From Mobula birostris (Eukaryota), in NCBI RefSeq assembly GCF_030028105.1, contig NC_092387.1:17358244-17422243 (forward strand): DNA of 64,000 nt, written 5' to 3'. The translations under genes were made by a program, and so were the position numbers. The notes below the pieces were generated by a model that saw only the letters and a program-made list of their open reading frames with translations, did no database searches and was not told the origin of the DNA. How positions within the stretch are numbered: the first letter of the stretch is position 1; every line of letters starts with the position of its first letter. Positions 9,853-26,530 of this stretch are shown piece by piece.

Positions 9853-10616
9853 ACATTGGTTGCAATTCGAAAAAGGATGGCTGACCAATTGGTCAAGTGT
9901 GAGCTGATTAAAGAGAATCAGCATGAATCTGTGGATTGGTTCACATTTAGCTAATCGAATTGAATGGTTGCAAAGGTTTAGAGAGCATCTCTGGATGTCA
10001 TCGGTCTGAACACTGATATAGGGTAAGAGTCTAAGGAACATATGGAGCCTCTTCAATGCCCCTACCATACTTACTTCCATCACTCACCACCCCCCTCCAA
10101 CCCAGCAACACACCCCAGATACCTACCACTCACTGTGTATAAAAGACATCTCCTTTGAAGTTTCACCCTCTCACTTCAATGCACATTCTCTGTATTTGAC
10201 ATTTTACTCTGGGGAAAAAGGCACCAACTGTCTACTCTCCCAATCTTTTGAGCTTCTGTCATTAAATTGATTGAGGCCTTCCACTGATCTAGGTCGACCA
10301 TGGATGTTGCACCCGAGCTGTCAATGTGATAGATAAGCCAAGGCAGTACAATATGGAGAGCAAGCTGTTGCCCATGCAGCAGGTTCCTCCTCACCATGCA
10401 GTGGATGAATCCAAAGGAACGGCAGAGACCAATACAGTTTGGCACCAGCAGTGTCGCAGAAGTTGCCGGTCAGTGTTGAACTCATCGTATGACTCTATTA
10501 GAGACTCCAGCTCTGGAGTTTTCCATAAGACCATAAGACAAAGGAGTAGAAGTAGACCATTCGGCCCATCGAGTCTGCTCCGCCATCTTATCATGAGCCG
10601 ATCCATTTTATCCTAT

Positions 10617-13610
10617 TTAGTCCCACTGCCCCGCCTTCTCACCATAACCTTTGATGCCCTGGCTACTCAGATACCTATCAATCTCTGCCTTAAATACGCC
10701 CAATGACTTGGCCTCCACTGCTGCCCCTGGCAACAAATTCCATAGATTCACCACCCTCTGACTAAAAAAATTTCTTCGCATTTCTGTTCTGAAAGGGCGC
10801 CCTTCAATCCTGAAGTCATGCCCTCTCGTATTAGACTCCGCCATCATGGGAAACAACTTTGCCACATCCACTCTGTCCATGCCTTTTAACATTCGAAATG
10901 TTTCTATGAGGTCTCCCCTCATTCTTCTAAACTCCAAGGAATACAGTCCAAGAGCGGACAAACGTTCCTCATATGTTAACCCTCTCATTCCCGGAATCAT
11001 TCTCGTGAATCTTCTCTGTACCCTCTCCAACGTCAGCACATCCTTTCTTAAATAAGGAGACCAAAACTGCCCACAGTACTGCAAGTGAGGTCTCACCAGC
11101 GCCTTATAGAGCCTCAACATCACATCCCTGCTCCTACACTCTATTCCTCTAGAAATGAATGCCAACATTGTATTCGCCTTCTTCACTACTGACTCAACCT
11201 GGAGGTTAACTTTAAGGGAATCCTGTACAAGGACTCCCAAGTCCTGTTGCATCTCAGAACTTTGAATTCTTTCCCCATTTAAATAATAGTCTGCCCGTTT
11301 ATTTTTTCTGCCAAAGTGCATAACCATACACTTTCCAACATCGTACTTCATTTGCCACTTCTCTGCCCATTCTTCCCATCTATCCAAGTCTCTCTGCAGA
11401 CTCCCCGTTTCCTCAGCACTACCGGCCCCTCCACCTATCTTCGTATCGTCAGCAAACTTAGCCACAAAGCCATCTATTCCATAATCCAGATCGTTGATGT
11501 ACAATGTAAAAAGAAGCGGCCCCAACACTGATCCCTGTGGAACACCACTGGTAACCGGCAGCCAACCAGAATAGGATCCCTTTATTCCCACTCTCGGTTT
11601 CCTGCCAATCAGCCAACACTCTATCCACGTATGTAACTTTCCCGTAATTCCATGGGCTCTTATCTTGTTAAGTAACCTCATGTGTGGCACCTTGTCAAAC
11701 GTCTTCTGAAAATCCAAATATACAACATCCACTGCATCTCCCTTGTCTAGCCTACTGGTAATTTCCTCAAAAAATTGTAATAGGTTTGTCAGGCAGGATT
11801 TTCCTTTAAGGAATCCATGCTGAGTTCTGCCTGTCTTGTCATATGCCTCCAGGTACTCTGTAACCTCATCCTTGACAATCGACTCCAACAACTTCCCAAC
11901 CACCGACGTCAAGCTAACAGGTCTATAATTTCCTTTTTGCTTCCTTGCCCCCTTCTTAAATAGCGGAGTGACATTTGCAATCTTCTAGTCTTCCGGAACC
12001 ATGCCAGAATCTATCGACTTTTGAAAGATCATCGCTAATGCCTCCGCAATCTCCACAGCTACTTCCTTCAGAACACGTGGGTGCATTCCATCTGGTCCAG
12101 GAGATTTATCGACTTTTAGCCTATTCAGCTTCCTGAGTACTTTCTCTGTCGTAATTGTGACTGCGCACACTTCTCTTCCCTGCCACCCTTGAGTGTCCGG
12201 TATCCTGCTGTCTTCCTCAGTGAAGACTGATGCAAAATACTTGTTCAGTTCCTCTGCCATCTCCTCATCTCCCATTACAATTTCTCCAGTATCATTTTCT
12301 ATCGGTCCTATATCTACTCTCACCTGTCTTTTACTCTTTATATACTTGAAAAAGCTTTTAGTATCCTCTTTGATATTATTTGCTAGTTTCCTTTCACAGT
12401 TAATCTTTTCTCTCTTAATGACCTTCTTGGTTTCCTTTTGTAAGGTTTTAAAAACTTCCCAATCCTCTGTCTTCCCACTAATTTGTGCTTCCTTGTATGC
12501 CCTCTCCTTTGCTTTAACTTTGGCTTTGACTTCTCTTGTCAACCACTGTTGCATCCTTTTTCCACTCGAAAATTTCTTCTTTTTTGGAATATACCTGTCT
12601 TGCACATTCCTCATTTTTCGCATAAACTCCAGCCACTGCTGCTCTGCCGTCTTTCCCGCCAGTGTCTCTTTCCAGTCAACTTTGGCCAGTTCCTCTCTCA
12701 TGCCACTGTAATTTCCTTTACTCTACTAAAACACCGACACATCAGATTTCGGCTTCTCTTTTTCTAATTTCACAGTGAACTCAATCATGTTATGATCACT
12801 GCCTCCTAAGGGTTCCTTCATCTCAATCTCTCCAATCACCTCCGGTTCATTACATAATACCCAATCCAGTACAGCCGATCCCCTAGTGGGCTCAACAACA
12901 AGCTGTTCTAAAAAGCCATCTCGCAGACATTCTACAAATTCTCTCTCTTGAGATCCAGTGCCGACCTGATTTTTCCAATCTACTCGCATGTTAAAATCCC
13001 CCACAATTATCATAACACTGCCCTTCTGACAAGCCTTTTCTATTTCCAGTTGTAATTTGTAGTCCACATCCCTGCAGCTGTTTGGAGGCCTATAAATAAC
13101 TGCCATCAGGGTCTTTTTACCCCTGCTATTCCTTAGCTCAACCCATAAAGATTCTGCACCTTCCGATCCTATATCACCTCTTTCTAATGATTTAATATCA
13201 TTTCTTACCAATAAAGCCACGCCTCCCCCTCCGCCTACCTTCCTATCCTTCCGATACACCATGTATCCTTGGACGTTCAGCTCCCAGAGACATGCAACCT
13301 TTAGCCAGGTCTCAGTGATGGCCACAATATCATACCTGCCAATCTATAGCTGTACAACAAGATCATCCACCTTATTCCTTATGCTGCGTGCATTTAAGTA
13401 CAACACCTTAAGACCAGTATTTGATACTTCTTGCTTTGATTTCACTGCAACTTTATTGCACTTCAACTCATCCCTATGGCTACACATTTGCCCCATCACC
13501 TGCCTGTCTTTCCTGACATCTTTACTGCTCACTATCTTAGATTTATTTCTGTTATCCCCTTCCTCTGCTCTATCATTCCGGTTCCCATCCCCCTGCCAAA
13601 TTAGTTTAAA
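10617..13610 (-). pseudogene. CR1 ORF2 (endonuclease/reverse transcriptase) with three in-frame TAG stops
   Basis: ORF-track pieces 13344-13532, 12726-13325, 11985-12701 and 10617-11912 share one frame. The only breaks are TAG codons at 13344, 12726 and 11985. Confidence 0.9.
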
Positions 13611-14427
13611 CCCTCCCTAACAGCTCTATTAAACTTTCCCGCCAGGATATTGGTCCCCTTCGGGTTCAGGTGTAACCTGTCCTTTTTGAACAGGTCATAC
13701 TTTCCCCAGAAGAGATTCCAATTATCCAAGAATCTGAAGCCCTGCCTCCTACACCAGTGTCTCAGCCAGGCATTCATCTGCCTGATCCAACTACTCTTGC
13801 CCTCGCTAGCATGTGGCACAGGTAGCGATCCCGAGATTACTGCCCTGGAGGTCCTGCTTCTCAGCTTTCTTCCTAACTCCTGGAAATCTCTCTTCAGGAC
13901 CTCCTCCTCCTTTGTCCTATCTATGTCATTGGTACCAACATGTACCAAGACAACTGGCTGCTCACCCTCCCCCTTTAGAATATTCAGGACCTGATCCGAG
14001 ACATCCCGTACCCTGGCACCTGGGAGGCAACACACCATGCGGGTATCTCTGTCAGGCTCACAGAATCTCCTGTCTGTTCCCCTGACTATGGAATCCTCCA
14101 CGACTACCGCATTTCTCTTCTCCCTCCTTCTCTCCTGCACAACAGCGCCAGGCTCAGTGCCAGAGACCCGGTCACCGTGGGCGTCCCCCATCAGGTCATC
14201 CCCCTCAACAGCATCCAGAACAAGATATTTGTTGCTGAGGGGGACAGCCACAGGGGTGCTCTCCACTATCCGGGCATTTCCCTTCCCTCTCTTGACAGTG
14301 ACTCAGTGTTCTGACTCCTGTAGCCTAGGGATGACTACCTCCCTGTAGCTCCTGTCTATCACCTCTTCACTTTCCCTGATAAGCAGTAGGTCATCAAGCT
14401 GCAGCTCCAGATCCCTAACACGGTCTC
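13601..14427 (-). pseudogene. CR1 ORF1 C-terminal part (coiled coil + SGNH esterase-like domain)
   Basis: ...RVRDLELQLDDL... coiled coil followed by an esterase fold ending REGLN*. The N-terminus is missing. Confidence 0.85.
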
Positions 14428-15730
14428 TTTTCCTTGGGGTTTACTCCTGAAGCCTGTCCCATGAGTGGTTATAGCTGCAAGGCAGCAGCGGTTGAGACCA
14501 GAGAATTCTTTCTCCTACATGAGCTACCAGCCACAGCTAACGAATCCTAGCTGCCCAAAGTGACTGGTTTTAAGGTGCCAGTAACCTGCCTTTGCCCCTT
14601 CTGCTATCAGAAGAAACGATTCACCAGACTTAGTAGCTAAGCCACACATGAAGTCCAGGAGTTGGACTTGGTTGTCAGAGACTATTTGAGATGCACGCCA
14701 TTGGGAGCATTTAATAGGTAGTGGGAGCATATCCCCACTACCTCCTCCGGCTTTGAGAACCTCAAGAAAACATTGAATTGATAACAAATGCAAATAAAAA
14801 ATAACTTCTTCCTCTAAGGGAGTTGAGAACAAATGAGGCACAAATTTAACACCAAAGTTAATCTAATGAACAAACATATTTTTCACAAATCCAGAAAAGA
14901 ACAGAGAAAATCCAGAAAACTCTTCCTAACACACTGTCCTTTGTAAGTCGATTGAAATTTTCCATCTGATGTATGAAGTATTTTACCAAAATCTTATCAG
15001 GGTGAAATGGAAAATGGTTTTAAAAGTATCCTGACTGGTTGCACCATTGCCTGCTACAACAATGTCAATGTACAGGAACGCAAAAGGCTGCAGAGACTTG
15101 TGGACACAACCCTCCCCACTGGCAGGATGTACAACACGAGGTGCTTCAAAGAGGTGGCATCTATCATGAAGGACTCCCCCATCATGCCATCTTCTTGCTA
15201 CTACCATCAAGAGGAGGTACAGAAATCTTCAACCACCAAGTTAAGGAGCTGCTTTTCGACAACCATCAGATTCTTGAACAGACCTGCGCAACACTAACCC
15301 TACCTCAGCAATGAAACACCTTGAACCACATCTTTCACTGCAAAGGCTGCCAAGGATTTGTCCCTAATTCTCTTTGTTTTTTGTATTAAGGTATTGCTTT
15401 TGCTCAGTCTTTTTCCTCCTCCTCTTTACTGTATTTTATCATTTATATTCCGCATTTTCTCTCCACCTATGTGCTTGCGATGCTACTACAAGCAAGATTT
15501 TCATTGTACTTGTACCCCACCATACTGGTGCACACAACAATAAGTTCAACTTGACTTGACAATCAAGAAGAATGGCATAAGAGTCAAAAAGGTTGAATGA
15601 CTTAGTAATCCTCAGTAAGTCAGATCTTAGCGCCTCTGCATCAATTCATCTATGTGCAGGAGTGCCCAGAACTACTTCATTCTTGGGTACCATAAACAAA
15701 TATAAAAATGGGTTTTGGCTTCAAACTGAC

Positions 15731-21690: not shown

Positions 21691-22486
21691 ATATACTATG
21701 TGCCGTTGAAAGCTACTTGAGCAAAATTGTGCCAAATTACAATCAACTTAATATTTGAATTTGTTTCTGAATTATCAATTGGCAATGCTAATACATGGGA
21801 AATTATCTTATCTAACAGTTCCTACACTAACTCCATTCCTCCTCCTGTCTAGCATCTAATACTGGAACAAACCATTACAACCATACAGATCCACTTCAAG
21901 TAACCCATTCGATTGATCGTCAAATCTACCTACTTTTATCACATCAGCTTGACTATCTGCCTCATCAAATCACGAGTCCTGTTTATTGTCACGTGAAAAA
22001 CTTGCATGCAGCAACATCATAGGGATGTAGATGCAGCCAACAAAGAGCACATAAATTAACCATAAATCTGCTGCTAAAATCCTCATTCATTGCCATTCCC
22101 TTTGACTCAATTATTCCAAAGCTCACTTGCCTAGTCTCCCTCACTTGATTCATCCACATAACTAATCGAACCATCTGCTGCCAATATCAGAAATCACATA
22201 AAAATCCCCATCACTCATGTCCTCCTAGCACACTGTAGTTTTAGTTTAAAATTCTCACCGTCCTTTTAATTCCCTCTACGGTATTAAAAAAAAAGCCTAA
22301 TTCCCTTTCCTCCCCCCACCCCGTTAACAGTACCCGATTAATGGTTCGCTGTTAGACTGGGGAGGAAGTTGGATGGGTTGGTCGCGAGGGCAAGAACTTG
22401 GGCGAAGGAACCAATTCTAGGCCCGGACTGCGAACTCCCCCGTCCCTCGCCATCGTCAACAAATTCGGCCGACACCCTTCACATAC

Positions 22487-25580: not shown

Positions 25581-26530
25581 ATGTTGTGAAATTTCTTATG
25601 TGGCAGCAGTACATCGCAATACATAATAACTAAAAGCTGAATGACTGTAAGTATATATACAAAAAGTTAAATTAGTGCAAAAAGTGGCAAAAAGGTCGTG
25701 AGGTAGTGTTCATTGGTTCAATGTTCATTCAGAAATTGGATGGCAGAAGGGAAAACCTGTTCCAGGATCGTTGAGTGTGTGCCTTCAGGCTTCTGTACCT
25801 CCTTCCTGGTGGTAGCAGTGAGAATTGGTCATGTCCTGGGTGGTGCAGGTCCCCTGTTGATGAATGCTCCCTTTCTGAGGTACTACTCCTCGAAGGTGGC
25901 CCTGATGGAGCTGACCGAGTTTATCACTTTCTGCAGATTATTTCCATCCTGTGCTGTGCACCCCCGACCCCCCAACCAGATGGTGATGCATCCAGTCAGA
26001 ATGCTCTCCACAATACATCTGTAAAAATTTGCCTTTCATGATGGACCAAACCTCCTCAAACTCCTAATGAAATATAGCCACTATTGTGGCTTCTTTGTAA
26101 TTGCATCGATATGTTGGGCCTGGGACAGATCCTCAGAGATGATGACACCCAGAAACTTGAAATTGCTCACCCTTTCTACTTCTGATTCCTTTATGAGGTC
26201 TGGTGCGTGTTCCCTCATCTTACCCTTTCTGAAGTCCACAATTAATTCTTTAGTCTTAAGTTGAGCACAAAGTTGTTGCTGCAATACCACTTGACCAGCC
26301 GATCTAGCTCACTTGTGTACACCTCTTCGTCACCATCTGAAACTCTGCCAGCAATGGTTGTGTCGTGAGTAAATTTTTAGATGACTTTTGAGCTGTGCCT
26401 AGCCTCACAGTCATGGGTGTAGAGAGAGCAGAGGGGTGGGCTAAGCATGCATCCTTGAGGCACACCAGTGTTGATTATCAGCAAGGCAGAGATGTTATTT
26501 CTGATCTGCACAGACTGGTTTCTTCTTAAT
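25580..26530 (-). mobile_element. Rex1/Babar LINE 3' fragment
   Basis: INTGVPQGCMLSP.L.SLYTHDC and KTKELIVDFRK. Confidence 0.75.

Follow-up and report, generated by a model that had tools for sequence, protein, structure and literature searches.

For the Dictyostelium elements TRE5-A and TRE3-A, a review states in a figure legend that a −1 frameshift is needed for ORF2 (PMC5911963), and for Paramecium elements +1 shifting or reinitiation has been suggested. The reviews consulted call the translation of LINE ORF2 an open question. PMC5009743 counts U_UUA_AAC and G_GGA_AAC as two of the four heptamers most prone to shifting; it adds that frameshifting can depend strongly on a nearby stop codon and that a minority of stimulators lie 11–15 nt away, may be linear and involve trans-acting factors. 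No description of a CR1 frameshift was found in the literature searched, part of which was available as extracts; the word 'frameshift' is absent from the main texts of PMC13343379 and PMC4120745, and 'translat' from that of PMC13343379, a 2026 CR1 survey, as far as these texts were accessible.

The window analysed here (the whole stretch of 64 000 nucleotides) carries a CR1 copy on its minus strand, on which all features described below lie. Among the transposable elements of birds, reptiles and sharks CR1 predominates, and a short tandem repeat at the 3′ end in place of poly(A) is a defining feature; its first full descriptions are reportedly those of Haas 1997 and Kajikawa 1997. These two papers, Kapitonov and Jurka 2003 and the Repbase notes may already mention the overlap and so may have priority. 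In the window, ORF1 (13601..14440) encodes a C-terminal SGNH esterase domain (Pfam Lipase_GDSL_2, 7e-15; the family profile matches the ZfL2-1 esterase 4C1B at 5.6e-49) and ends in ...REGLN-stop. ORF2 (10617..13410) encodes an APE endonuclease (Exo_endo_phos, 6e-13) and a reverse transcriptase (RVT_1, 1.2e-29) and is followed by a 3′ UTR (10523..10616) with a terminal 8-base repeat in two copies and without poly(A). Esterase ORF1, APE and RT in ORF2 and the short repeat at the 3′ end place the element in CR1; its junction matches consensus rows labelled CR1, the 5′ part of ORF1 is similar by eye to the stingray consensus HypSab_CR1-6c, and the top ORF1 protein matches come from rays and sharks, which makes a cartilaginous fish the likely host. 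The copy is dead: ORF1 is 5′-truncated near 14440 (a limit read by eye) and has a premature stop at 14305, and ORF2 has four, at 13346, 12728, 12725 and 11987. Any function is therefore a property of its family. No second junction from this family was found elsewhere within the 64 kb window. A second CR1 piece at 25595–25167 consists of an ORF1 esterase fragment adjoining an RT fragment, an internal deletion having removed the junction, and another TTTAAACTAA at 22250–22241, which reads ...RILN-stop in an open frame without an esterase match, is probably a chance occurrence.

The 3′ end of ORF1 reads GAG GGT TTA AAC TAA. As the initial annotation had it, U_UUA_AAC stands in X_XXY_YYZ phase (13610–13604) immediately before the stop (13603–13601; TAA, TAG or TGA in relatives). 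It is overlapped by a second heptamer, G_GGU_UUA (13613–13607), likewise read from the sequence, and these two are the last of three in-phase heptamers in ORF1; in-phase X_XXY_YYZ words make up 8 of 1131 codon triples (0.7%) in the ORFs of the element. The −1 frame, said to open two codons upstream of the heptamer and to run without a stop into the APE domain, opens at 13616, after a TAG at 13619–13617, and contains no stop as far as the APE start, against 5 and 10 stops in the other two frames between 13600 and 13410. Its first part (13411..13616) is a charged linker between the overlap and the APE domain, and from 13616 to 10617 a single frame of 1000 codons, the four premature stops included, leads through APE and RT. 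Both of the in-frame ATGs noted ahead of APE were located (13496 and 13487). At the latter, 77% of the depth of the closest contig run has ATT, so this ATG is no general feature of the family. Before the first in-frame ATG there are three ATGs out of frame. The G-rich run noted 6 nt downstream of the heptamer is also present, and the G-tract GGGGGATGGG (13584..13593), a candidate linear stimulator that contains one of the out-of-frame ATGs (13588), begins 10 nt past the heptamer. The junction thus combines an in-phase heptamer, a downstream gene open in the −1 frame and, as described below, synonymous positions that are kept. It carries no UAAUG, since the window reads TAATT with AUU overlapping the stop, and lacks the spaced ORFs of L1, the ORF2 frame overlapping the final codons of ORF1. 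The best reading, and one that we regard as probable, is a programmed −1 frameshift giving an ORF1p–ORF2p fusion; comparative evidence supports this proposal of the initial annotation.

Junction DNA of other vertebrates was taken from Supplementary Table 2 of PMC13343379, in which the first 400 bases of each consensus row were read, many rows being gapped; the common names used here are an interpretation of its row codes. TTTAAACTA had 23 matches in this table, 17 of them at ORF1 ends: alligator (2), crocodile (3), frog (1), coelacanth (1), elephant shark (1), stingray (1), sawfish (1), catshark (2), dogfish (3), bowfin (1) and one fish row labelled Crack. TTTAAACTG had seven, two at junctions, namely bearded dragon with TGA and catshark CR1-13 without a clean stop. 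The exact heptamer is thus found at 19 published consensus junctions, from sharks to crocodilians and a lizard. The free synonymous variation that would have counted against a frameshift was not seen: T TTA AAC is kept while the adjacent codons and the stop change, the stop being TAA, TAG or TGA and the codon before TTA being GGT, GCT, TAT, CTT, GAT or TGT, yet always ending in T. Because both searches were conditioned on the motif, searches with esterase and APE words were added; heptamer and stop were present in seven of the eight distinct rows with a visible junction, the exception being a poor gecko consensus that lacks one A and the stop. When 36 stingray and catshark CR1 rows were read in order, five junctions were obtained, four with the whole heptamer and one cut inside it. 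Among long bird gene models, the ORF2 frame reads S-F-K-L-D-x-K-G-E-G in five of seven, all from wood stork, and meets no stop in the roughly 95 codons that lead to APE; combined with the R-A-L-N that terminates bird ORF1 proteins, this fixes T TTA AAY. One painted-turtle protein likewise has S-F-K-L in the −1 frame. Consensus and protein rows are related, and the counts are of non-independent events. Conservation of the heptamer at the end of ORF1 is not due to chance and extends across jawed vertebrates; the junction signal is real and deeply conserved and, judged from sequence, likely to be functional. The supplement of PMC4120745 gave no sequence match, and that of PMC4316615, available in part, gave three, the two displayed lying in the end of ORF2. 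Although labelled Crack, the row AldAff_Crack-2 of Supplementary Table 2 (PMC13343379) carries the heptamer at an esterase end of CR1 type and is possibly misclassified.

Termination–reinitiation, which the initial annotation had left standing on account of the in-frame ATGs, is retained as the main rival, although we consider it unlikely. Having terminated on ORF1, ribosomes would begin again in the −1 frame, either on the stop-overlapping codon, whether AUG, GUG, AUU or any other, or on an AUG of the linker, and produce free ORF2p, the heptamer and G-tract only holding or repositioning them. TAATG with its AUG in the ORF2 frame occurs at three of the 19 junctions; SART1 uses UAAUG (PMC3894237) and the L1 ORF2 start tolerates any sense codon (PMC1965478). 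Methionines are present in the linkers of this copy, basking shark and stork, and in these ORF2 is not AUG-less. Against this, the stop-overlapping codon is not conserved (ATT, ATG, GTG, GTT, GGT, AGC, GAT or AGT), the conserved out-of-frame ATG in the G-tract precedes any in-frame ATG, and reinitiation leaves unexplained both the fixed T-TTA-AAC and the Q-G-N alternative found among protein ends (see below). Frameshifting and reinitiation may both be used in some families. The −1 frameshift is kept as the preferred reading in what follows.

Close relatives of the junction were collected by aligning two contig runs to 13360–13800, which yielded 19 694 and 98 records; two raw-read runs against the same interval gave no aligned reads. 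In the first contig run the summed depth was 1.25 and 1.44 million at 13585–13614 and 0.05–0.79 million elsewhere, and in the second it was 270 and 296 compared with at most 237. Of 80 variant sites 40 were listed, none of them within 13580–13617, and loose ends start at 13617 and 13628 upstream and at 13580, 13573, 13570 and 13561 downstream. Depth peak, variant sites and loose ends thus define a conserved island (13580..13617) that spans the junction; because loose ends flank it, the junction is common to subfamilies that differ on either side. In the ORF2 frame all four downstream loose-end consensuses are free of stops; of their eight other frames, five contain one (counted by hand). With the bird gene models, this indicates that other subfamilies, too, have an uninterrupted −1 frame, the point on which a stop would have spoken against the initial annotation. 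One upstream loose-end consensus, from four contigs, keeps the heptamer and then has TAT at its edge.

The G-tract, a candidate stimulator, is conserved in its placement in some of the families and forms no stable hairpin. GGGGGATGGG had nine matches in the table, seven in CR1 rows and all seven of these at the junction, and it lies exactly 10 nt past the heptamer in six rows (two alligator, elephant shark, sawfish and two catshark); other families have looser G-runs or, in gapped consensuses, none. Folding against shuffled sequences revealed no stable hairpin on the 3′ side (z = +0.4 to +1.4; hairpin-type folds). The G-quadruplex potential is weak, its G4Hunter score of 1.32 ranking fourth in the element, and the strongest long-range duplex, at −21.5 kcal/mol, falls among those of shuffled sequences (−16.5 to −24.7). 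By analogy, the long-spacer stimulators of PMC5009743 bear a likeness to the CR1 G-tract. At 13540–13660, heptamer and G-tract can pair with ORF1 bases just upstream (z = −2.0), a fold that would mask the heptamer until the ribosome arrives.

The same fold could be claimed for a junction that acts as an RNA or DNA signal in a non-decoding job such as packaging, protein binding or splice acceptance. The conserved island reaches about 20 nt beyond the stop, and CTAAT followed by TTTGGCAG resembles a branch point and acceptor; however, the AG is missing in the alligator rows and the branch-to-AG spacing is about 9 nt, and for any such signal the codon phase, the adjacent stop and the open −1 frame would be unnecessary. 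We regard this explanation as very unlikely and a −1 frameshift as the better account of the junction.

The ends of ORF1 proteins were compared in a set of 212 matches (first search, profile search and a few cluster members), of which 153 passed a filter that required the esterase end to be reached with a short tail; 59 were dropped as fragments or chimeras. Among the first matches 36 of 64 end in L-N-stop. A terminal tripeptide compatible with a slippery heptamer occurs in 107 of the 153, compared with 691 of 18 005 internal positions (3.8%), and in 32 of 53 clusters at 55% identity; 95 of the ends are LN and 11 are GN, and 46 do not fit a slippery heptamer. Thirteen kinds of residue precede LN, and a U-ending codon is possible in 94 of 95 cases, the single exception being E. 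No U-ending codon exists for E, K, Q, M or W. After dereplication these five residues occur before terminal LN in 0 of 44 cases, compared with 20.7% at nearby positions (binomial 4e-5) and with 14 of 119 internal xLN (about 0.004, by hand), both probabilities being optimistic because the proteins are related. GN ends are Q-G-N in 11 of 11, compared with one of 61 internal xGN; these ends, from distant families, would fit G_GGA_AAC, as CAG GGA AAC. As DNA, the Q-G-N codons gave no match in the consensus table, and locus scans of viral contigs gave no LINE locus.

LN lies 22, 23, 28 or 35 residues after the catalytic His; of 80 readable cases, 63 have the distance 22 and ten have 28 or 35. No predicted helix extends as far as LN, and the match to the solved structure of the ZfL2-1 (L2) esterase stops short of it; with the His distance varying and LN lying beyond both helix and esterase match, LN tracks the stop and not the fold. 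That Leu-Asn is a C-terminal protein motif of ORF1p, with the heptamer as a by-product, draws on the frequent distance of 22 residues, which does point to a constrained helix length, and is nevertheless largely refuted by codon data and extremely improbable, since the DNA junctions read have TTA for Leu and AAC for Asn (TTA being only 20 of the 99 Leu codons across the element), the preceding residue varies as described and avoids those without a U-ending codon, and LN stands outside the esterase fold. In a quick tree of ORF1, from which the number of changes of end type is not readable, LN is found in 33 of the 36 rows of a shark/turtle/bird group and in none of a fully supported eight-row group that is likely to be L2.

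Several observations were made alongside these comparisons. Five proteins of a distant family (P0145, P0149, P0170, P0191 and P0195) have x-K-N at the usual end followed by 9–14 residues, which would fit A_AAA_AAC with the stop further on; a viral-contig locus scan found no DNA of this family. Internal x-K-N and x-F-L words elsewhere, which fit A_AAA_AAC and U_UUU_UUA, are known from protein only and were excluded from the support. In scans for LINE junction DNA, the one metagenome locus reads as a bacterial gene and was rejected, viral contigs gave no or weak matches, prokaryote genomes gave one 15-residue match and plasmids gave none. P0013, which NCBI lists as an SGNH hydrolase of Pseudomonas aeruginosa from a 4.2 kb contig, is a CR1 ORF1 of shark type and likely to be a contamination. 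P0019, P0046, P0047 and P0060 are ray host-gene isoform models that contain CR1 ORF1 sequence (ribosomal protein S24, TMEM204 and ABHD14A-like), owing to exonisation or annotation error.

In the frameshift model a minority of ribosomes would slip back one base at U_UUA_AAC, tRNA-Leu and tRNA-Asn re-pairing from UUA/AAC to UUU/AAA before decoding resumed at CUA. For the transframe peptide, given as EGLK or EGFK in the initial annotation, standard tandem slippage instead predicts mainly ...EGLN-LIWQGDG. The fusion would run esterase–linker–APE–RT over about 1,340 residues (a 344-residue ORF1 homologue plus 995 residues). Ribosomes that do not slip would terminate and yield ORF1p, so that the slip rate would set the ratio of ORF1p to RT, as for Gag and Gag-Pol. 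The weaker steps of the model are a pause that may be caused by the adjacent stop and the G-tract 10 nt downstream, the possible action of this G-tract as a linear, protein-bound or G-quadruplex element rather than as a hairpin, and the recruitment in cis of RT into the ORF1p particle that the fusion might bring about. Apparent ORF1–ORF2 fusions in birds were rejected as evidence, these being gene models that apparently skip part of ORF1; a search for longer proteins carrying the ORF2 linker gave one match.

If the model holds, the working CR1 enzyme would be a Gag-Pol-like fusion bearing a lipid-binding esterase, CR1 ORF2 starts would be misannotated, and constructs that recode the junction or start ORF2 at a Met would assay something other than the working protein. 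With a conserved slip site, LINE ORF2 translation becomes testable in a 40 nt cassette, and a stimulator without a hairpin would matter to the recoding field.

The element corresponds to the canonical vertebrate CR1 (PMC13343379) and to CR1 subgroup 7 (PMC4120745) in having an esterase ORF1, APE, RT and a short terminal repeat. Its heptamer is, as the initial annotation claimed, that of coronaviruses: U_UUA_AAC is the 1a/1b site of IBV according to PMC5009743. With retroviral gag-pol it would share a structural protein upstream and a polymerase in the −1 frame. It differs from both systems in that no hairpin was found 5–9 nt past the heptamer (hairpin-type folds) and in that the stop directly adjoins the heptamer; no protease was seen in the element, so a fusion would either remain uncleaved or depend on an enzyme of the host. 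In arteriviruses and cardioviruses the stimulator, linear or structured, lies 11–15 nt from the shift site and works with trans-acting factors such as nsp1beta–PCBP (PMC5009743), compared with a start at 10 nt for the CR1 G-tract, a likeness of spacing only, the CR1 motif being G-rich. SART1 and mammalian L1 are, like CR1, bicistronic LINEs that need a low ORF2 output, and a few CR1 junctions carry TAATG (three of 19). The ORFs of mammalian L1, unlike those of CR1, do not overlap, and in the literature consulted neither SART1 nor L1 is described with a conserved slippery heptamer. Dictyostelium TRE5-A and TRE3-A are also APE-type non-LTR elements with a −1 frameshift stated for ORF2 and provide the precedent for such a shift in a LINE; they belong to another clade, have another type of ORF1 and are not from vertebrates.
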